In this document: piece after piece, positions 1,405-7,957 of the stretch
How the letters are laid out: each line of letters starts with the position of its first letter
How positions within the stretch are numbered: the stretch's first letter is position 1
Origin: Candidatus Woesearchaeota archaeon
Lineage (GTDB): Archaea; Nanobdellota; Nanobdellia; SCGC-AAA011-G17; JACQNH01
Length of the DNA: 8,797 nucleotides
Assembly (NCBI GenBank): GCA_964363105.1
Contig: CAYIHC010000036.1
Span: 1-8,797, forward strand
Direction: 5' to 3'
Notes under the pieces: model-generated
Databases searched by the model: none
Told to the model about the DNA's origin: nothing
The model's input: only the letters and a program-made list of their open reading frames with translations
Program-made: the position numbers and the translations under genes

Positions 1405-2907
1405 ATGCAAAAAGAGAATAATCTATATACTGAGGTATTAGAGTTAGCATCTAGAAAAAGCATATTTTATCCTTCAAATGAGATTTACAATGCTCCTGCC
1501 GGGTTTTGGAGTTTTGGGCCTATAGGGGAAAGCATAAGAAGGAGAGTGATTGATTTCTGGAGGAAGGAATTTGTTCAAGAAAATGAGATGCTTGAGATAG
1601 ATGGAAGCATTACAATGCCTGAAGAAGTTTTTAAGGCATCTGGACATTTAAGCTCTTTTGTTGATCCTGAAGTTGTATGCAAGAATTGTAAATCAAGATT
1701 TAGGGCTGATAAATTGTTAAGCGAGAAATTAAACAAGATAGTTCCTGAATCTTTAAGTGTAGATGAATTTAATGCAATGATGAAGAAAAATAATATTAAA
1801 TGTTCTTCTTGCAAGGGTGATTTAAGCGATGTTAAAAAGAGCTCTTTAATGGTGCAGAGCAATATACGTGGTGAAAAAAACTTCTATTTAAGACCTGAAG
1901 CGTGTCAATCAATATTTTTAGAGTTTTTGAGAATGACTAAAACAATGAGAGTTACCTTACCTAAAGGAATTGCACAGATTGGAAAAGCATTTAGAAATGA
2001 AATTTCTCCAAGACAATCAATTTTAAGATCTATAGAATTTTCCCAGATGGAAGCTGAGATATTTTTTAATCCTGAAAAAATAAATGATATAGAAGATTTT
2101 AAATTAATTGAGAATTATAAATTAAGAATATTAAGAGTTGATAAAAAAGAGATAGAAGAAATAAACTGTAAGGATTTAGTTCAGAAAAAAATTATCTCTG
2201 GGGAACTACCTTGTTATTTTTTAGCTAAAGAGCAACAATTTTATGAAAAACTTGGGATACCTAAAGATAAAATGAGATTCAGGGAACTAAACAAAGATGA
2301 CAGGGCTTTTTATTCGAAAGAAAGCTTTGACTTTGAGGTTTTAACTTCTGTTGGATGGCTGGAGTTAAGTGCTAATAACAATAGGCAAGATCACGATCTA
2401 AAGGGGCATTCGGATGGAAGTAAGCAGGACTTAAGTTTTAGTGATGATGGGAAGAAATTTATTCCTCACATATTTGAGGTTTCTATCGGTGTGGATAGAA
2501 GCTTGTATGCTATTTTAGAATTAAGCTTTATCAAGGAAAAAGAAAGAAATGTTTTAAAATTAAATCCAAGATTAAGCCCTTATGATTGTGCTGTATTTCC
2601 TTTGGTGAATAAGGACGGAATGGATTTAGAGGCTAAGAAACTTGTTAAAATACTAAGAGACAATTTGTATGAGGTTTTTTATGATGATAGTGGAAGTGTA
2701 GGAAGAAGATACAGAAGAATGGATGAGGTAGGTGTTAAGGTTTGTGTTACTGTTGATGGTGAAACTTTAAAAGATAAAACAGTTACTCTTAGAGATAGAG
2801 ATTCAATGAAACAAGTAAGAATTAAAATTGATGAGTTAAGCTGCGTATTGAATCAGATGATTTGTTTTGATAAAGAATTAAAAGAATTTGGAAAGGTGAT
2901 TAATTGA
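1405..2907 (+). CDS. glyS: Glycyl-tRNA synthetase, archaeal/eukaryotic alpha2 type (class II)
   Basis: N-terminal SIFYPSNEIYNAPAGFWSFGPIGE, class II motif 2 region YLRPEACQSIFLEF...GKAFRNEISPR, motif 3 region SIGVDRSLYAILE, and an anticodon-binding domain (LSPYDCAVFPLV...YDDSGSVGRRYRRMDEVGV). A CxxC...CxxC insertion (CKNCKSRFRADKL...CSSCKG) is present. At 500 aa it is compact. Confidence 0.95.
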   Translation: MQKENNLYTEVLELASRKSIFYPSNEIYNAPAGFWSFGPIGESIRRRVIDFWRKEFVQENEMLEIDGSITMPEEVFKASGHLSSFVDPEVVCKNCKSRFRADKLLSEKLNKIVPESLSVDEFNAMMKKNNIKCSSCKGDLSDVKKSSLMVQSNIRGEKNFYLRPEACQSIFLEFLRMTKTMRVTLPKGIAQIGKAFRNEISPRQSILRSIEFSQMEAEIFFNPEKINDIEDFKLIENYKLRILRVDKKEIEEINCKDLVQKKIISGELPCYFLAKEQQFYEKLGIPKDKMRFRELNKDDRAFYSKESFDFEVLTSVGWLELSANNNRQDHDLKGHSDGSKQDLSFSDDGKKFIPHIFEVSIGVDRSLYAILELSFIKEKERNVLKLNPRLSPYDCAVFPLVNKDGMDLEAKKLVKILRDNLYEVFYDDSGSVGRRYRRMDEVGVKVCVTVDGETLKDKTVTLRDRDSMKQVRIKIDELSCVLNQMICFDKELKEFGKVIN

Positions 2908-4016
2908 CTGTAAACTGGAAATTGATTTTAGGTATCTTGTTTTTGGTTATTATTTTAATATTTATTCTTACCTTTAAATCCAATAAAGAGGTTGTGAAAA
3001 TCGGTGCGGTTTTACCATTAACTGGGAAAGGGGCCCCTTACGGAGAAGAGTGGGGGAATGCAATTTTAATGGCTGTTGAGGATCTTAATGCTGATGGGGG
3101 TGTTAATGGTAAACTCTTGGAGGTTGTTATAGATGACAGCAAAACTGAAAATGCAGTTGCTGTGACCTCTATGACTAAATTGGTAAATGTAGATAATGTT
3201 AAGATTGTTTTTAGTGGCTTAAGCGGTCCTGTTGCAGCAGTAGCACCTGTCGCTGAAGAGAATAAGGTTATATTATTTGGGGTAACTACTGCAACCAATT
3301 GGGCTTTGGAAAATGAGTATTCTTTTAAGGATTACACAGATATAGCTTTGGAATGTAAATTTTTAGGGGAGAAAGTAAAGGGTAAAAAAATTGCTTTTAT
3401 CGGTGTCAATGTTGATACAACTTTGGATTGTATAAATAGCCTGAAGAATGAGGGTGTAGACTTAGTCTATGAACTGTATACAAAGGAGGATAATGATTTT
3501 CGAAGCCAGATTACGAAGGTAAAGGATAGTGGGGCAGATTTCATAATGATAAGACCCCTTAAGGCTGAGTTTTTGATATTAATAAAACAAATGAAGGAAT
3601 TAGAATTTACTCGACCGTTGATTTGCCCGACTTTACGGCTTACTGGTTGCGATACTAAGGAGTTTATAGAAATAGGAAAAGAGTTTTTAAACGGAGGGAT
3701 AGCAAGCGGATTTTATGTAGATAGAGATAATCCAAAAGTAAGCCAATTTTTTAATAGATATAAAGAGAAATTTGGCAAGGAATTAACAGGAGATGGGATA
3801 TTCGTTTATGATGATGTTAAACTCCTAGGAAAAGTTTTAGAGATTTGTGATAAGACGGGAAATATAGCTGATACGACTTGCCTTAAAGAGGAAATAAAAG
3901 GGCATAGTTTTGATTCTATTGCTGGAAAAGAAAAGCTAAAGTTTGATGATAAAGGTGTAGCAAGTCGAGAAGTAGCCTTATTTAAATTTGAAAACGGTAG
4001 TTGGGTAATAAATTAA
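2904..4016 (+). CDS. Type-1 periplasmic-binding-fold solute-binding protein (LivK/branched-chain amino acid ABC substrate-binding-like) with an N-terminal membrane anchor
   Basis: N-terminal hydrophobic helix (LILGILFLVIILIFILTF), followed by the typical VKIGAVLPLTGKGAPYGEEWGNAILMAVEDLNADGGVNGKLLEVVIDDSKT signature of Peripla_BP_6-type proteins. The only in-frame start before the anchor is TTG at 2904, which overlaps the glyS TGA (TTGA). Confidence 0.8.
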   Translation: MTVNWKLILGILFLVIILIFILTFKSNKEVVKIGAVLPLTGKGAPYGEEWGNAILMAVEDLNADGGVNGKLLEVVIDDSKTENAVAVTSMTKLVNVDNVKIVFSGLSGPVAAVAPVAEENKVILFGVTTATNWALENEYSFKDYTDIALECKFLGEKVKGKKIAFIGVNVDTTLDCINSLKNEGVDLVYELYTKEDNDFRSQITKVKDSGADFIMIRPLKAEFLILIKQMKELEFTRPLICPTLRLTGCDTKEFIEIGKEFLNGGIASGFYVDRDNPKVSQFFNRYKEKFGKELTGDGIFVYDDVKLLGKVLEICDKTGNIADTTCLKEEIKGHSFDSIAGKEKLKFDDKGVASREVALFKFENGSWVIN

Positions 4017-4285
4017 ATTTGTATTAATTGTTTTTTTCTTATCTTGTATAAGCCTTCAATGAAATCGGTTCCTGCATAGCCTGCTAATAAGGATAATTTT
4101 AAATCTGTTGGGAAGAATAAACCTGCAAATAAGCCAATAATTCCCGATGCTATTAATGTGAATAAAATTGCTTGAAGTTTAAAACCTTTAATTTTAGGAT
4201 CTAATTTATATTTTAAGAAGCCGACACAAGCACGTGCTAAACCACCAATAAAACCGAATAAGGCTGCTTGTAAATAAGGTTCCAT
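4013..4285 (-). CDS. Small hydrophobic membrane protein (2-3 predicted helices), function unknown
   Basis: 90-aa ORF with an ATG start (cat 4283-4285). It has Gly/Ala-rich hydrophobic segments (ALFGFIGGLARACVGFL, ILFTLIASGIIGLFAGLFF). An A/T box at 4304-4315 lies about 25 nt upstream. Its stop codon overlaps the stop of the convergent gene (TTAA, 4013-4016). Confidence 0.55.
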   Translation of the reverse strand: MEPYLQAALFGFIGGLARACVGFLKYKLDPKIKGFKLQAILFTLIASGIIGLFAGLFFPTDLKLSLLAGYAGTDFIEGLYKIRKKQLIQI

Positions 4286-4303
4286 AAATTTGGTTGTTTT
4301 TGA

Positions 4304-4315
4304 ATATTAATAAAG
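4304..4315 (-). promoter_or_regulatory. TATA-like box for the minus-strand gene starting at 4285
   Basis: atattaataaag on the + strand, centred about 25 nt upstream of the minus-strand ATG. Confidence 0.35.
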
Positions 4316-4333
4316 ATTTTGATGATACAGAAG

Positions 4334-4342
4334 TTTTATAAA
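4334..4342 (+). promoter_or_regulatory. TATA box (ttttataaa) for the ORF starting at ATG 4365
   Basis: Centred about 27 nt upstream of ATG 4365. The motif is near-identical to the boxes upstream of tRNA-Ala (4863-4871) and the 6920 gene (6890-6897). Confidence 0.5.
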
Positions 4343-4364
4343 TTTCTGCTTTTTGTTTTTGTTT

Positions 4365-4862
4365 ATGTCACAAGGTAAACCGGGAAGGCTCGAGATGGAG
4401 TTTATGCAAAGGCCATTTATGACTCATAGGGTGCAAAAAGAAAACTTTTCTTTGTATAATGATGGTTATTTTAATTATGATCGTCTGGATTTTGAATTAC
4501 AACTTGCGAGGGCCGTTGCTTTTAAAGAACTAAGGGGGAAGAAGGGGTGGGTGGAAACAATGGCAATGTTTTTTCTTGATACTGCAGACAGCGATGATGG
4601 GTCATGGAAGAAATTTTTGGGTGGTAAAGGTGAGAAAAAACTAATTGAATATGGTAATAATTATAATGCTGTTGAAACTTATTTGATGAGGGTTATGGGT
4701 GGGAGAAATCCTGAAAAATTTACCAGTCTTACAATAGGGAACTTGGGAAACATAGTTTATGTTCCTTTCGGGAGACCAAGAGATTTCCCTGTTGCTGATT
4801 TTGAGCTTCTTGTTGGAAAAGTATGCGCTAGTGTTACAGGATATGCGCTTTTTATTAGATGA
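4365..4862 (+). CDS. Hypothetical soluble protein (165 aa), no family recognised
   Basis: Long open frame with coding-like composition. I prefer ATG 4365 (MSQGKPGRLEMEF...) over the track's TTG 4353, because the TATA box sits 27 nt upstream of 4365. Confidence 0.6.
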   Translation: MSQGKPGRLEMEFMQRPFMTHRVQKENFSLYNDGYFNYDRLDFELQLARAVAFKELRGKKGWVETMAMFFLDTADSDDGSWKKFLGGKGEKKLIEYGNNYNAVETYLMRVMGGRNPEKFTSLTIGNLGNIVYVPFGRPRDFPVADFELLVGKVCASVTGYALFIR

Positions 4863-4871
4863 TTTTATAAA
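4863..4871 (+). promoter_or_regulatory. TATA box (ttttataaa) for tRNA-Ala
   Basis: Centred about 28 nt upstream of tRNA position 1 (4895). It begins 1 nt after the upstream stop codon. Confidence 0.5.
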
Positions 4872-4954
4872 CACAATAACTTTTTCTTTTTTATGGGCCG
4901 GTAATTCAGTCCGGTAGAATGCTCGGCTGGCAGTCGAGATGCCTCGGGTTCAAA

Positions 4955-5043
4955 AGAGTTTTCTTTTAAGAAAAGAAACCTCGTAAAGAAAAAAGAAATT
5001 TCTTTTTCCGTGTTTTTCTTTTTGAAAGAAAAAGCTCTGAAAG
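4955..5043 (+). other. tRNA-Ala intron (89 nt), bulge-helix-bulge bounded, position 59/60
   Basis: The central 4-bp helix is ttca (4949-4952) with tgaa (5038-5041). It is flanked by the 3-nt bulges aaa (4953-4955) and agt (5042-5044). The outer helix is the T-stem. The inner helix pairs gagtttt (4956-4962) with aaagctc (5031-5037), read 5'-3'. Cutting after the second bulge nucleotide on each side gives 4954|4955 and 5043|5044. Confidence 0.8.
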
Positions 5044-5045
5044 TC
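5012..5045 (+). repeat. 34-nt stretch identical to 6778-6811 (3' end of the intron plus the first two 3'-exon nucleotides)
   Basis: gtttttctttttgaaagaaaaagctctgaaagtc occurs at both loci. The upstream 12-mer tttctttttccg (4999-5010 and 6764-6775) is also shared. So is tttcttttRAGaaaagaaa (4960-4978 and 6728-6746). Confidence 0.95.
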
Positions 5046-5062
5046 CCGACCGGTCCACAACC

Positions 5063-5070
5063 TTTTTTTT
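5063..5070 (+). terminator. T8 tract, likely archaeal transcription terminator for tRNA-Ala
   Basis: tttttttt begins 6 nt after the discriminator base. Oligo-T tracts act as archaeal termination signals. Confidence 0.5.
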
Positions 5071-5199
5071 AACAAAGAAACTCGAATGGCTTCTGTTCCA
5101 ATACACAGGAAACCTTGAGAAAAGAAAAAGCGTTGAAAAATGGGTTTGGTCATTCATAAGGCTTTTAATTCAAATTTAACTGGTAATTTTTGATGAAAT

Positions 5200-5541
5200 A
5201 TGAGTAAATGGTTTAAGAATTATACTGGAGATTATCTTGGAACTTATGTTCTTTCAGGTTTGACAATAATATATTTTTCAGCTGCGGCTAGCTTGTTCTT
5301 GTCGGGTTGTAAACTTTATCAGAACAATAGCGAGCAAAGACCTATTCCTGTTAAGTCAATCCCAATTAGGGAAAGAAATAAATCCAATTTAATAGAACAA
5401 ATGCCTACACCTATTGAAGAACCTAAGCAATGGGAAAATAAACCAGTTCCACGAAAATCAGTTCCTGTAGATGATGATTTTGAAGAATCTGTTGAACCTG
5501 CTTTCGCAAAAAATGGTTTTAGACTCGAGTTTAGGATTTGA
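5200..5541 (+). CDS. Hypothetical lipobox-containing, membrane-anchored protein with a Pro-rich tail
   Basis: ATG start. A hydrophobic segment ends in LFLSGC (lipobox-like L-S-G-C). The repeated motif P-[IV]-P-x-K-S-[IV]-P appears as PIPVKSIP and PVPRKSVP. An A/T box (aaatttaa, 5172-5179) lies about 25 nt upstream. Confidence 0.5.
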   Translation: MSKWFKNYTGDYLGTYVLSGLTIIYFSAAASLFLSGCKLYQNNSEQRPIPVKSIPIRERNKSNLIEQMPTPIEEPKQWENKPVPRKSVPVDDDFEESVEPAFAKNGFRLEFRI

Positions 5542-5548
5542 TAGAAAC

Positions 5549-5556
5549 TTATTTAA
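5549..5556 (+). promoter_or_regulatory. TATA-like box (ttatttaa) for the HIT gene
   Basis: Centred about 27 nt upstream of ATG 5580. Confidence 0.4.
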
Positions 5557-5579
5557 GTTGACTTAATTTGAATTTTTGT

Positions 5580-5975
5580 ATGGAAGATTGTATCTTTTGT
5601 AGGATTGTGAAAGGAGAAATACCTGCTGAAAAGATATATGAAGATAAAGATGTTTTTGTTTTTTTGGATATAAATCCTGTTAATTATGGACACTCTTTAG
5701 TTATTCCAAAAGAACATTATAAAATGATGATAGATACGCCTGATAGTGTTTTAAGTAAGGTTTTTTTGAAGTCAAAAGAATTAATGAAAGTGATTAAAGA
5801 AACTATGAAGTCAGATTATGTTGCTGTATCTGTAATTGGTATAGATGTGCCTCATTTTCATGTTCATTTAGTGCCAAGATATTTTAATGACGGAATGGCT
5901 ACTTTTTGGCCTACTAAGAAATATAAAGATAACGAAATAAAAGAAACAGCTGAAAAGATAAGAAAAGCTGTTTAA
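5580..5975 (+). CDS. HIT-family (histidine triad) nucleotide hydrolase/transferase
   Basis: MEDCIFCRIVKGEIPAEKIYEDKDVFVFLDINPVNYGHSLVIPKEH plus the histidine triad HFHVHLVPR. ATG 5580 is preferred over the track's TTG 5568. It gives the family-typical N-terminus, and the TATA box lies 27 nt upstream. Confidence 0.9.
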   Translation: MEDCIFCRIVKGEIPAEKIYEDKDVFVFLDINPVNYGHSLVIPKEHYKMMIDTPDSVLSKVFLKSKELMKVIKETMKSDYVAVSVIGIDVPHFHVHLVPRYFNDGMATFWPTKKYKDNEIKETAEKIRKAV

Positions 5976-5976
5976 T

Positions 5977-6339
5977 TTATTCTAATTTTCTTATTCTATA
6001 CCGACCAAGTTTAACAATTGCCAATGATTGTTCTAGATCTTTGATATTAATAGACATTAAAAACTCCATTAATACATTTGCGAATTGAAATGCGTTGAAG
6101 GAAGATGGTAGTCTTAGAATTACAATTCCACAATGTGGTTTAGTTTGTGAAGTTATAAAATATCCAAACTCTAAATCTTTTGTTACAAGAATGCTTTTAC
6201 TCCTTATTGCATATTCCAGTATCTTTTTATCAGTAGCTTGCCCTAAGCCGATATCTCTTGCATGTATAACCTCCAAGTTAATCTTTTTGAAAATATTTAA
6301 AGTAGAATAAGGTATGTTTGCATCAAGAAAGAATTTCAT
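5977..6339 (-). CDS. DUF5615 / Mut7-C PIN-like domain protein (putative toxin nuclease)
   Basis: FFLDANIP (N-terminal acidic residue), ATDKKILEYA and ILVTKDLEF match the PIN-like DUF5615 pattern. There is a 4-nt ATGA overlap with the upstream DUF433 gene. Confidence 0.75.
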   Translation of the reverse strand: MKFFLDANIPYSTLNIFKKINLEVIHARDIGLGQATDKKILEYAIRSKSILVTKDLEFGYFITSQTKPHCGIVILRLPSSFNAFQFANVLMEFLMSINIKDLEQSLAIVKLGRYRIRKLE

Positions 6340-6560
6340 CTTTTAATTTTTAATAAACCAACTTGTTCCTCAGAAACTATTTCTGTGGCATATTTTAGGG
6401 CAGATAGTATGCTGTTCTTATCGACACCATATTCCTTTTCAATTTCTTCAAAGGTCATATCACTGGCTAAAGCCCCTATAATCTCATCTACAGTTATCCT
6501 AGTTCCTTTGATTATGGGTTTACCAAATCTTACATTTTCATCGATTATTACTTCTGCCAT
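6336..6560 (-). CDS. DUF433 domain protein (putative antitoxin / HTH partner of DUF5615)
   Basis: The 74-aa ORF has RFGKPIIKGTRITVDEIIGALASDMTFEEIEKEYGVDKNSILSALKYA, the classic DUF433 pattern. It lies upstream of and overlaps the PIN-like gene. Confidence 0.8.
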   Translation of the reverse strand: MAEVIIDENVRFGKPIIKGTRITVDEIIGALASDMTFEEIEKEYGVDKNSILSALKYATEIVSEEQVGLLKIKR

Positions 6561-6580
6561 TTTATGTTTAACATACCATT

Positions 6581-6592
6581 TTATTTATAAAA
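6581..6592 (-). promoter_or_regulatory. TATA-like box for the DUF433-DUF5615 operon
   Basis: ttatttataaaa on the + strand, centred about 27 nt upstream of the minus-strand ATG at 6560. Confidence 0.4.
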
Positions 6593-6627
6593 CTATCGTT
6601 GTTATTTCAATTTTCAAAAACCTAATA

Positions 6628-6636
6628 TTTTTTAAA
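6628..6636 (+). promoter_or_regulatory. TATA-like box (ttttttaaa) for tRNA-Met
   Basis: Centred about 29 nt upstream of tRNA position 1 (6661). Confidence 0.4.
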
Positions 6637-6721
6637 TGCTATTAATTTAAAGATTTATAAGTCTCGGTAGCTCAGCCTGGCTAGAGCACGGGTTTCATAA
6701 GCCCGGGGTCGAGAGTTCAAA

Positions 6722-6809
6722 ACAGCCTTTCTTTTGAGAAAAGAAAGCTTGGGGAAAGAAAACTTTCTTTTTCCGAGGTTTTTCTTTTTGAAAGAAAAAG
6801 CTCTGAAAG
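6722..6809 (+). other. tRNA-Met intron (88 nt), BHB-like, position 59/60; paralogue of the tRNA-Ala intron
   Basis: The central helix is ttca (6716-6719) with tgaa (6804-6807). The bulges are aaa (6720-6722) and agt (6808-6810). The inner helix is weaker than in tRNA-Ala: c6723 opposite c6803 is a mismatch, followed by pairs a6724-t6802, g6725-c6801 and c6726-g6800. Confidence 0.78.
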
Positions 6810-6811
6810 TC
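6778..6811 (+). repeat. 34-nt stretch identical to 5012-5045
   Basis: Direct comparison of the two loci; see the 5012-5045 entry. Confidence 0.95.
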
Positions 6812-6851
6812 TCTCCCGAGACACTTAAATTTACTGAGATTATTACTACGA

Positions 6852-6858
6852 TTTTTTT
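6852..6858 (+). terminator. T7 tract, possible terminator downstream of tRNA-Met
   Basis: ttttttt lies 29 nt after the discriminator base. It is the first oligo-T run after the tRNA. Confidence 0.35.
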
Positions 6859-6889
6859 GATGTAGTATCCTGATATTTTTGACTAAAGA

Positions 6890-6897
6890 TTTATAAA
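6890..6897 (+). promoter_or_regulatory. TATA box (tttataaa) for the 6920 gene
   Basis: Centred about 26-27 nt upstream of ATG 6920. It is part of the 13-mer taaagatttataa, which also occurs at 6648-6660. Confidence 0.5.
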
Positions 6898-6919
6898 CAG
6901 CATTGATCTTGAATTTTAC

Positions 6920-7957
6920 ATGGTTGATTTTACTGCTCCAAATGCGGGAACAATACAAAGAGCTGGACCTATGAATCCTATAAAGATGATTATCAACAGC
7001 ATTGTCGGGGTTATAATTGGAGTTTTATTTATTTTGTTGTTAGCTCCTACTGTTTTGTGGTTCGCTGAAAGCCAGAATACTGCTAAGATATTTTCATTTA
7101 CAAAAGAGGTTTCTTCAACAAGCGGGGCTTCGGGTTATATACGAACTACTGAAATAGCCAACGCAAATACACCTATTGTTTGTTATGAAAACAAGATACA
7201 AGGAAATTGTCTTTATTATGATTACAAATTGGAAGAGTTAAAATATACTCTAAAAGACTATTGTGGAAACTTAGGGAAAAATCAACAGGTTATAGAAACT
7301 AAAGGGCAAAAATGCAGCAGAAATAATAAGGGCGAGGAAAAATGTAGACAGTGTTATCTTGTAAATGAGAGTAACTGGGTAAACATAAAATCTGAAACAA
7401 GATTCCAGCCTTTTTCAATTGGTAATTTTAAAGTTGATTATCCGAATAGCGCTAAGATAATTGGAGCAGAGAATTACAATAAGCAGATTGATACAATACA
7501 TAGGGAGAGCATGAGATATATTAAAGATAATAGTAATTTATTAGTTGGCGGTAATTCTAATGGACAAGTGATCAGTCATGGAGGTGATAAGAAATATCTT
7601 TTAATCTCAACAAAAGACTATCAATCAACTTATGATACACTTAAAGCACAAGATAGAATACTTGCGTGGATATTAAGAATAATTACTTTAGTTGTTTTGA
7701 TATTTGGTTATAATCTTATTTTCGGACCAATCTCATTAATGTCTAGTTTTGTTGGAAAGATACCAATTATTGGGAGATGGATTGATGGTGCTGTCGGCGG
7801 TGTTATTTTTATTGTAAGTCTTTTACTTGCTATAGTCCACTTTATTATATTGTGGATTTTGATTATGATAATAAAAAATATTTTATATATTGCAATTCTT
7901 TTAGCTGTTATTGGATTAATCTTCTATCTTTATGCATACTTTAAAAAACAAAATTAA
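6920..7957 (+). CDS. Membrane protein, TMEM43/DUF1625-like topology (N-terminal helix, large ectodomain, C-terminal helix bundle)
   Basis: 345-aa ORF. The N-terminal helix ends in APTVLWFAESQ, comparable to the LWWNEG motif of DUF1625. A roughly 200-aa hydrophilic Cys-containing domain follows. Several C-terminal helices contain GPISLMSSFVGKIPIIGRWIDGAVGG. The family assignment is tentative. Confidence 0.65.
   Translation: MVDFTAPNAGTIQRAGPMNPIKMIINSIVGVIIGVLFILLLAPTVLWFAESQNTAKIFSFTKEVSSTSGASGYIRTTEIANANTPIVCYENKIQGNCLYYDYKLEELKYTLKDYCGNLGKNQQVIETKGQKCSRNNKGEEKCRQCYLVNESNWVNIKSETRFQPFSIGNFKVDYPNSAKIIGAENYNKQIDTIHRESMRYIKDNSNLLVGGNSNGQVISHGGDKKYLLISTKDYQSTYDTLKAQDRILAWILRIITLVVLIFGYNLIFGPISLMSSFVGKIPIIGRWIDGAVGGVIFIVSLLLAIVHFIILWILIMIIKNILYIAILLAVIGLIFYLYAYFKKQN

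Follow-up and report, generated by a model that had tools for sequence, protein, structure and literature searches.

A sequence family of probable bulge-helix-bulge introns at position 59/60 of different tRNA genes in Woesearchaeota

The 8,797-nt stretch of DNA analyzed here (the window) is an entire contig of a metagenome-assembled genome (MAG) from a groundwater member of the Woesearchaeota, which belong to the DPANN archaea. Two tRNA genes in the window, read from the sequence as tRNA-Ala(GGC) at 4895-5057 and tRNA-Met(CAU) at 6661-6823, are each interrupted by an insert in the T loop, between positions 59 and 60 (Table 1). The window also carries genes for Dph2, an archaeal-type glycyl-tRNA synthetase (GlyRS), a HIT protein, a DUF433/DUF5615 toxin-antitoxin pair, Alba and S17e. 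A first-pass annotation of this DNA took it for a DPANN-type genome, which fits the presence of the Alba, S17e, Dph2 and archaeal GlyRS genes as well as the closest named relatives of the GlyRS, which are annotated as Candidatus Woesearchaeota. We consider it very likely that both inserts are archaeal bulge-helix-bulge (BHB) introns from a portable family that has recently spread among different tRNAs of related genomes.

In its interrupted form, neither gene is recognized by standard tools. ARAGORN and Rfam at gathering thresholds both return zero tRNAs for the raw window, and Rfam at E <= 1 adds nothing but miRNA-hairpin matches attributable to chance and a single partial tRNA match, which covers 6668-6731 on the exon 1 side of tRNA-Met. 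Once positions 4955-5043 and 6722-6809 are cut out, ARAGORN reports clean tRNA-Ala(GGC) and tRNA-Met(CAT) genes. A TATA-like box precedes each gene, and the distance of the box from tRNA-Ala agrees with the spacing of archaeal promoters. The region from upstream of tRNA-Met through its exon 1 (6618-6721), TATA-like box included, matches the related genome L028 (GCA_023246445.1) at 90.6% by BLASTN. A terminator-like T8 run follows tRNA-Ala at 5063-5070, and a T7 run lies downstream of tRNA-Met at 6852-6858.

Table 1. Coordinates of the tRNA genes, predicted introns and associated features in the window and at orthologous loci (L numbers are introduced in the text)
Feature	Source	Position	Strand	Basis or remark
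TATA-like box TTTATAAA	window	4864..4871	+	about 27 nt upstream of the tRNA-Ala 5' end; read from sequence
tRNA-Ala(GGC) exon 1, positions 1-59, G3:U70 pair present	window	4895..4954	+	ARAGORN after excision; T stem 5/5
Predicted BHB intron, 89 nt, 59/60 of tRNA-Ala	window	4955..5043	+	motif scoring; fold z = -4.65
tRNA-Ala exon 2, positions 60-73	window	5044..5057	+	sequence reading, ARAGORN
TATA-like box TTTTTTAAA	window	6628..6636	+	25-33 nt upstream of tRNA-Met; conserved in L028
tRNA-Met(CAU) exon 1	window	6661..6721	+	ARAGORN Met; Ile2 also possible
Predicted BHB intron, 88 nt, 59/60 of tRNA-Met, recent gain	window	6722..6809	+	motif scoring; site empty in L025, L028, L030 and L036
Antisense stretch, 43 nt of the Met intron	window	6762..6804	+	reverse complement of coding nt +12 to +54 of the L022/L023 genes
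tRNA-Met exon 2	window	6810..6823	+	sequence reading, ARAGORN
Intron-less tRNA-Met	L025	13492-13567		HIT-tRNA-Met context
Intron-less tRNA-Met	L028	13916-13990		HIT-tRNA-Met context
Intron-less tRNA-Met	L030	13533-13607		HIT-tRNA-Met context
Intron-less tRNA-Met	L036	12142-12217		outgroup, HIT-tRNA-Met context
tRNA-Ala(GGC) introns	window			89 nt at 59/60
tRNA-Ala(GGC) introns	L028			homologous 59 nt at 59/60; same 5' part and CCTCGTAAAGAAA linker
tRNA-Ala(GGC) introns	L025			16 nt at 37/38 only
tRNA-Ala(GGC) introns	L030			two others, none in the T loop

The two inserts are related in sequence. The first-pass annotation had estimated 76 matches in about 93 columns, or roughly 80% identity, between introns lodged in unrelated tRNAs. 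Global alignment gives 76 matches in 91 columns (83.5%), compared with 46 of 79 positions (58%) for the exons, and a BLASTN alignment of the introns reaches 85% across 100 columns. The 34-mer at 5012-5045 is identical to that at 6778-6811, the shared 12-mer and the hairpin core TTTCTTTT-NNN-AAAAGAAA are present in both introns, and the differences lie at i2/i5-6, in the loop of the first hairpin, in both linkers and in the loop at the tip, in agreement with the earlier claim that they cluster in hairpin loops and linkers. The minus-strand open reading frames (ORFs) at 4950-5153 and 6695-6958 both contain the peptide GRDFQSFFFQKEK. Every element of the original observation of two related T-loop introns is confirmed.

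Such similarity could in principle arise from a chimera or another assembly artefact, or from chance resemblance between low-complexity sequences. The introns do consist of alternating T/C- and A/G-rich runs, and 1,000 dinucleotide-preserving shuffles still reach a mean identity of 52.4%. However, the best of these shuffles reaches 67%, which is below the 83.5% observed. Contigs from other assemblies of Hainich groundwater well H43 (ERZ1292629, ERZ1292635 and Logan ERR3858116) match the window at 99.8-100% identity and contain exact copies of the Met locus in three cases and of the Ala locus in one. Because five independent assemblies, among them those from four other data sets, match the tRNA loci, the resemblance between them is not the assembly duplication that the first-pass annotation had raised as a concern. 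Copies also occur in genomes from California groundwater and a Joint Genome Institute (JGI) metagenome. We regard the artefact and chance readings as already refuted and give them practically no weight.

A complete splice motif accompanies the inserts. BHB geometry was scored in all eight T-loop copies, which include six from other contigs described below. In all eight, the outer helix h is the T stem with 5/5 positions paired (UCGGG:CCCGA in tRNA-Ala, GAGAG:CUCUC in tRNA-Met), the central helix UUCA:UGAA is paired at 4/4 positions and takes its UUCA from T-loop bases 54-57, and there are two 3-nt bulges, AA|A (A58 A59|A) and AG|U (A G|U60). Cuts set after the second base of each bulge, as in the canonical archaeal motif, give the T loop UUCAAAU. 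The inner helix h' is more variable. In the window Ala intron (GAGUUUU:AAAAGCUC), 7 of the first 8 positions are paired; the Met intron has AGC:GCU beside a C.C mismatch; the Met and Ser copies have at least 3 bp after one mismatch; and the helix is weak in two short introns, those of L028 tRNA-Ala and L018 tRNA-Leu. The motif thus has the strict hBHBh' form, with both flanking helices h and h'. Excision produces canonical tRNAs by ARAGORN, namely Ala(ggc), Met(cat), Ser(gct) and Leu(gag), from raw sequences in which nothing was found.

The remainder of each intron is composed of alternating pyrimidine and purine tracts that can be folded either as three hairpins or as one rod. The three-hairpin picture proposed earlier is foldable, but it is not the minimum-energy structure, being about 4 kcal/mol worse than the rod (-28.5 versus -32.5 kcal/mol for the Met intron). 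The rod is also the RNAalifold consensus, with 98% of it paired across copies. In addition, the rod supplies h' and completes the splice motif, whereas the three-hairpin fold lacks this helix.

Other intron classes were considered and rejected. Group I or group II self-splicing introns span several hundred nucleotides, compared with the 88-89 nt of the inserts, and no Rfam family was found at gathering thresholds. An intron carrying a C/D-box small RNA does not fit, as there is no TGATGA in either intron and no match to a snoRNA family, and CUGA occurs only within the 3' junction of the BHB motif.

A gene for the splicing endonuclease EndA (194-195 aa, PF02778 plus PF01974) is syntenic in three sister genomes and in the outgroup L036, and its best match of solved structure is the catalytic subunit of N. 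equitans (3iey_A, E = 5.5e-38). In L028, the 194-aa protein is encoded at 17710-18294. In the precursor that we propose, the T stem would act as the outer helix, U54-A57 (UUCA) would pair with the intron UGAA to form a 4-bp central helix, and the base of a rod of about 37 bp formed by the rest of the intron would serve as the inner helix. The tRNA splicing endonuclease would cleave both bulges (A58 A59|A and A G|U60), and an RtcB-type ligase would join the exons to restore the T loop UUCAAAU. Since the exon bases of the motif are all universal features of the T arm, the same intron should be spliceable from almost any tRNA. This portability is most likely the reason that one family occupies 59/60 of tRNAs for Ala, Met, three Ser and Leu.

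Direct evidence for insertion comes from the orthologous loci of close relatives. Syntenic sister loci were identified through GlyRS homologues at 79-83% identity, and are called L025 (GCA_053533235.1), L028 and L030 (GCA_016203175.1, the same assembly as L008 below). The first-pass annotation had recommended looking for intron-less alleles in relatives, and these exist: tRNA-Met is empty in all three sisters and in the outgroup L036. The exons of tRNA-Met from the window and from L028 differ at a single D-loop base. The filled site reads GTTCAAA[88 nt]TCTCTC and the empty L028 site reads GTTCAAATCTCTC, and thus the insertion is precise and lacks a target-site duplication.

Two other differences from the sisters flank this gene. 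A DUF5615/DUF433 toxin-antitoxin pair is inserted upstream of it (5977-6560), whereas the sister genomes have HIT and Alba as the immediate neighbors of tRNA-Met, and a gene for a 345-aa membrane protein is inserted downstream (6920-7957), again unlike the sisters. Counting the intron, the tRNA-Met locus has therefore acquired three insertions.

The direction of change is indicated by two outgroups, L034 and L036, whose GlyRS proteins are about 59-61% identical. There the gene order is GlyRS, tRNA-Ala(GGC), tRNA-Ala(CGC), HIT and another tRNA gene, which is read as tRNA-Met in L036 only. These three tRNAs are all intron-less in L036, and tRNA-Ala(GGC) of L034 has only a 13-nt canonical intron, so that tRNA-Ala(GGC) carries no T-loop intron in either outgroup. 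A neighbour-joining tree of GlyRS places the window among intron-less sisters, which together with the outgroups indicates that the T-loop introns are derived gains. The Met intron is a recent gain, specific to the lineage of the window and acquired after its split from the sisters. The Ala intron is older and is common to one sister. Moreover, the intron setup of tRNA-Ala(GGC) is different in each of the four clade genomes (Table 1). The family is quickly gained and lost within one genus-level clade.

Several observations made at these loci concern other disruptions. The spliced tRNA-Ala(GGC) of L025 (12914-13003) and L030 (12942-13052) has, by our reading, the anticodon loop UCGGCAU, with C33; position 33 is nearly universally U in tRNAs. 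In the outgroup L034, a tRNA-Pro (7024-7150) contains an unrelated intron at about 53/54, between the 5' strand of the T stem and the T loop, plus an insert in the region of the D arm. Thus, heavy disruption of tRNA genes reaches beyond the clade that carries this intron family. The outgroup L036 also encodes an FtsZ protein of 743 aa (2849-5080) with an intein (PF14890) inside the tubulin domain.

Six further T-loop copies were found in other related Woesearchaeota contigs, in tRNA-Ser(UGA) of L008 and L016, tRNA-Ser(GGA) and tRNA-Leu(GAG) of L018, tRNA-Ser(GCU) of L020 and tRNA-Ala(GGC) of L028. The copy count is not genome-wide, as the window's own genome is absent from the scanned genome collection. 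A 20-mer scan of one genome per species gave eight matches, one of which is a true copy (L008, a Woesearchaeota MAG from California groundwater); the other seven, in bacteria and a Marsarchaeote, were dismissed as chance. A scan of metagenome contigs added three more contigs, all from one JGI metagenome (L016, L018 and L020). The copy in tRNA-Leu(GAG), a 40-nt relative at 59/60 (L018 1227-1266), came out of a search with a profile and a scan for T loops that was written for this purpose. Identity among the 88-nt copies is 92-99%, and their identity to the window Ala copy is 82-87%. Among the six long copies, which derive from at least three genomes, the 32-nt intron part of the shared 34-mer (5012-5043) is invariant.

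Within the roughly 46 kb comprising the window, L008, L016, L018, L020, L022 and L023, all tRNA genes that were found have a 59/60 intron, and ARAGORN finds no intron-less tRNA. Several of the same genes are disrupted at other positions. By hand assignment, tRNA-Ser(GGA) of L018 (4300-4525) apparently has three introns (29/30, 37/38 and 59/60) and tRNA-Ser(UGA) of L008 (2090-2290) has two, one at 59/60 and one at 29/30 with a good BHB motif. The tRNA-Ser(UGA) of L016 likewise has a 29/30 intron besides that at 59/60, and tRNA-Ser(GCU) of L020 contains an extra canonical intron of 13 nt. ARAGORN mislabels the Ser(GGA) and Ser(UGA) genes as Stop(tta) and Arg(tcg).

Related introns are found at more than one tRNA position. 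In L025, L028 and L030, a tRNA-Pro(UGG) gene located between those for L11 and L37ae has a 37/38 intron whose 5' module, AGAGCCUUUCUUUU-AGA-AAAGAAAGCUU, is homologous to the T-loop family (nhmmer E = 4.6e-6). Its 3' end is altered to UAAG-AA, and the UAAG pairs with CUUG of the anticodon loop. The idea that the introns form a mobile or gene-converting family therefore draws support from the further copies, the second position and the empty orthologous sites. An ORF of 260 aa for a LAGLIDADG protein (L025 370-1152, minus strand) adjoins the 3' end of this tRNA-Pro(UGG) with an overlap of 7-8 nt, and it is missing from that place in L028 and L030.

A different view is that introns at 59/60 are ancient and have merely been homogenized by gene conversion, with no new insertions. 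The window Ala intron does look mosaic, as its 5' 37 nt, with the CCTCGTAAAGAAA linker, resemble the L028 Ala lineage and its 3' 46 nt nearly match the Met/Ser type. Partial conversion between introns is compatible with this pattern, but a deletion in L028 would account for it equally well. However, tRNA-Met is precisely empty in three sisters and one outgroup, and outgroup tRNA-Ala(GGC) is without a T-loop intron. The empty orthologous Met sites mean that at least the Met copy is a new insertion. In addition, the intron in tRNA-Met of the window and that in tRNA-Ser(UGA) of L008 share 94% identity, and conversion within a genome cannot produce this value between genomes whose alignable DNA is 76% identical (76-79% for the window and its sisters). 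Concerted evolution is thus ruled out as the sole explanation, and ancient introns homogenized in this manner seem unlikely to us. Conversion between existing introns is possible as a contributing process and may be the cause of the identical 3' halves.

The palindromic character of the insert raises another possibility, which is that a DNA transposon resembling a miniature inverted-repeat transposable element (MITE) has disabled the tRNA genes and left pseudogenes. The insert is a near-perfect palindrome, the nhmmer profile of the family matches the reverse strand of each copy (E ~1e-8), and fragments occur outside tRNAs, at the 5' end of a gene and in an intergenic spacer. Against this stand the precise insertion without target-site duplication and the location of 8/8 copies exactly at 59/60 with a complete BHB motif. 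Furthermore, the exons are unchanged relative to the intron-less ortholog, the promoter is conserved, and the syntenic, single-copy tRNA-Met is presumably essential. We therefore consider disabling by such an element very improbable, and elements of the MITE or insertion-sequence type were rejected by the negative test for target-site duplication.

Sequence conservation in the family is high. The T-loop introns of L008 and L016 are 99% identical, whereas the flanks of these loci are 89.7% identical. As a yardstick for intron drift in the clade, the tRNA-Pro introns of L025 and L030 are about 72% identical. These values, and the invariant 32 nt of the six long copies, would also be consistent with introns that are kept for a function of the excised RNA, with spread being secondary. 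The RNA might pair with mRNAs and lower their translation or stability, or the rod might bind a protein. However, the invariant 3' region has been lost from the Ala intron of L028, whose gene nevertheless looks intact, which indicates that splicing and tRNA function do not require this region.

An antisense relationship to protein-coding genes bears on the same question. The stretch of the Met intron listed in Table 1 matches the reverse complement at 42/43 positions in L022 (335-377) and 40/41 in L023 (1614-1654), and because the one mismatched position would pair as G.U, the intron could form continuous 43-nt pairing (42 Watson-Crick pairs plus one G.U) with two paralogous genes. These genes encode Cys-rich membrane proteins of 411 and 420 aa and come from the same Hainich samples; the complementary stretch encodes the residues ELFLSKRKTSEKES. 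L019 2852-2876 is also listed among the loci of the antisense match. The predicted energy of the intron:mRNA duplex is -71.7 kcal/mol, compared with -22.4 for shuffled targets. There is a precedent in yeast, whose free tRNA introns are reported, in the abstract of bioRxiv 10.1101/2025.11.19.689297, to lower the levels of complementary mRNAs. On the other hand, the pairing region is locked within the intron's own rod, and the target genes come from one sample set only and are not linked to the same genome as the intron. The peptide LFLSKRKTSE also occurs in a more distant homologue, and thus the shared DNA could be a mere copied fragment. That homologue, P0121, was found with the N-terminus of the L022 protein and has DLFLSKRKTSE as its own N-terminus. 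Overall, retention for RNA function is an improbable alternative, if the least improbable of those considered here. The narrower proposal that the excised, probably circular, intron acts in trans as an antisense RNA to the first ~50 coding nt of Cys-rich membrane or surface proteins, which would explain the invariant 3' half, is more doubtful still.

Intron sequence is found outside tRNA genes at other sites as well. In L008 and L016, 31 nt of the short Leu-type intron form part of an intergenic spacer. This solo copy, AGCTTTCTTAGGAAGAAACCTTGGAAAGAA (L008 1300-1335 and L016 420-455), is located within the 45 nt that separate a stop codon from the following ATG; that of L016 matches the 40-nt tRNA-Leu(GAG) intron at 96.7% over 30 nt by BLASTN, and its position is conserved in L008 and L016, whose genomes are 90% identical. 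The hairpin motif is nearly confined, within 112 kb of loci from the clade, to the introns and to the copies at the gene 5' end and in the spacer. Judging from these sequences, either intron DNA has been copied elsewhere or the intron RNA may have antisense targets.

How the introns spread can be narrowed to some degree. All that the host tRNAs have in common next to the intron is GTTCAAA at one end and TC at the opposite end, and flanking homology this short makes ordinary homologous conversion between tRNA genes seem unlikely. One candidate route would be reverse splicing of the intron into a T loop followed by recombination of the cDNA. Another would be a process at the DNA level in which the BHB site serves as a guide, a possibility raised in PMC4090602. 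Either route seems more plausible than ordinary homologous conversion, although the copying route itself is inferred. Scans of viral contigs revealed no intron modules, and thus there is no sign of a viral vector. Six-frame translations of the introns, used as protein queries, returned 8,000 low-complexity candidates and none at E <= 1.

Some points weigh against the view that these are spliced, recently spread BHB introns. Excision, where exactly the cuts fall and what becomes of the intron are predicted from the BHB motif. Intron pairs scarcely covary, with 23/34 never varying, so covariation does not decide between the rod and the three hairpins. EndA is seen in the sisters and L036, and the window contig stops short of the syntenic position. 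Neither a reverse transcriptase nor any other mobility protein came to light, and the window's own genome, which lies outside the scanned collection, yielded no donor copy. The GlyRS tree represents one gene analyzed by neighbour joining without support values, and the case for gain depends mainly on two outgroups. Finally, the conservation described above implies that the 88-nt form either is under selection or has recently moved between lineages, each of these being a candidate cause.

If the intron is indeed part of a portable family, its behavior may follow a simple rule, by which an intron with a splice motif built only of universal T-arm bases is movable to nearly all tRNAs. The filled and empty tRNA-Met sites can be compared base for base in close relatives, and this appears to be an unusually clean case of intron gain in an archaeal tRNA. 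The mechanism by which BHB introns spread, an open question since 2010, is made testable by this material. There is a practical consequence also. ARAGORN and the Rfam tRNA model miss all tRNAs with T-loop introns, and tRNA counts are therefore underestimated in these DPANN MAGs; quality scores of these bins that depend on tRNA counts are likewise too low. The antisense match to protein-coding genes offers a cheap lead on intron-derived regulation in archaea. Should it prove true, tRNA genes would double as carriers of a spreading regulatory RNA, which would be the first archaeal counterpart of the yeast fitRNAs.

In our literature searches, we came across no description of Woesearchaeota with a conserved family of intron sequences, and the closest precedent comes from hyperthermophiles. 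In Thermoproteales, similar introns in diverse tRNAs have been read as intron transposition (Fujishima et al. 2010, Mol Biol Evol 27:2233, as related in PMC4033280 and PMC4090602), and the first-pass annotation had also pointed to this precedent. The hallmarks of a transposing family of that type are found here, namely unrelated exons, presence and absence at orthologs, and more than one tRNA position. As far as these accounts describe the Thermoproteales, both systems have near-identical BHB introns in tRNAs with unrelated bodies, at canonical positions as well as at non-canonical ones, and both have introns gained after the species diverged. There are also several differences. The Thermoproteales are hyperthermophilic crenarchaea, whereas in our case the introns reside in a mesophilic DPANN archaeon from groundwater. 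In our family, all long copies are at the single site 59/60 with a motif drawn from universal T-arm bases only, the intron is long (88 nt) and folds as a rod, empty orthologous sites are documented directly, and intron fragments also occur outside tRNA genes. Thus, a known phenomenon, the transposition of BHB introns, is extended to DPANN with direct evidence from empty sites.

Other DPANN archaea offer a second comparison. Increased disruption of tRNA genes and incomplete tRNA sets have been described for DPANN, including one Woesearchaeota genome, in PMC5829648. As in ARMAN-2, N. equitans, Woesearchaeota and Pacearchaeota (PMC5829648 and PMC3239211), disrupted tRNA genes are missed here by standard finders, and the EndA of those lineages tolerates introns outside 37/38. 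What the consulted passages of PMC5829648 provide is counts and endonuclease types, not an intron sequence family common to tRNAs and genomes like that seen here.

Two systems in which the intron RNA has a role are also relevant. The tRNA-Trp intron of Haloferax volcanii, a BHB intron that contains a C/D-box guide RNA (PMC4090602), resembles our introns in being a long and conserved archaeal tRNA intron. Its conservation is explained by the function of the intron RNA, whereas our introns have no C box (RUGAUGA) and match no Rfam family. The yeast fitRNAs (bioRxiv 10.1101/2025.11.19.689297) share with our introns a long complementarity between a tRNA intron and mRNAs. However, those introns are eukaryotic and located at 37/38, whereas the link in Woesearchaeota consists of sequence complementarity alone.

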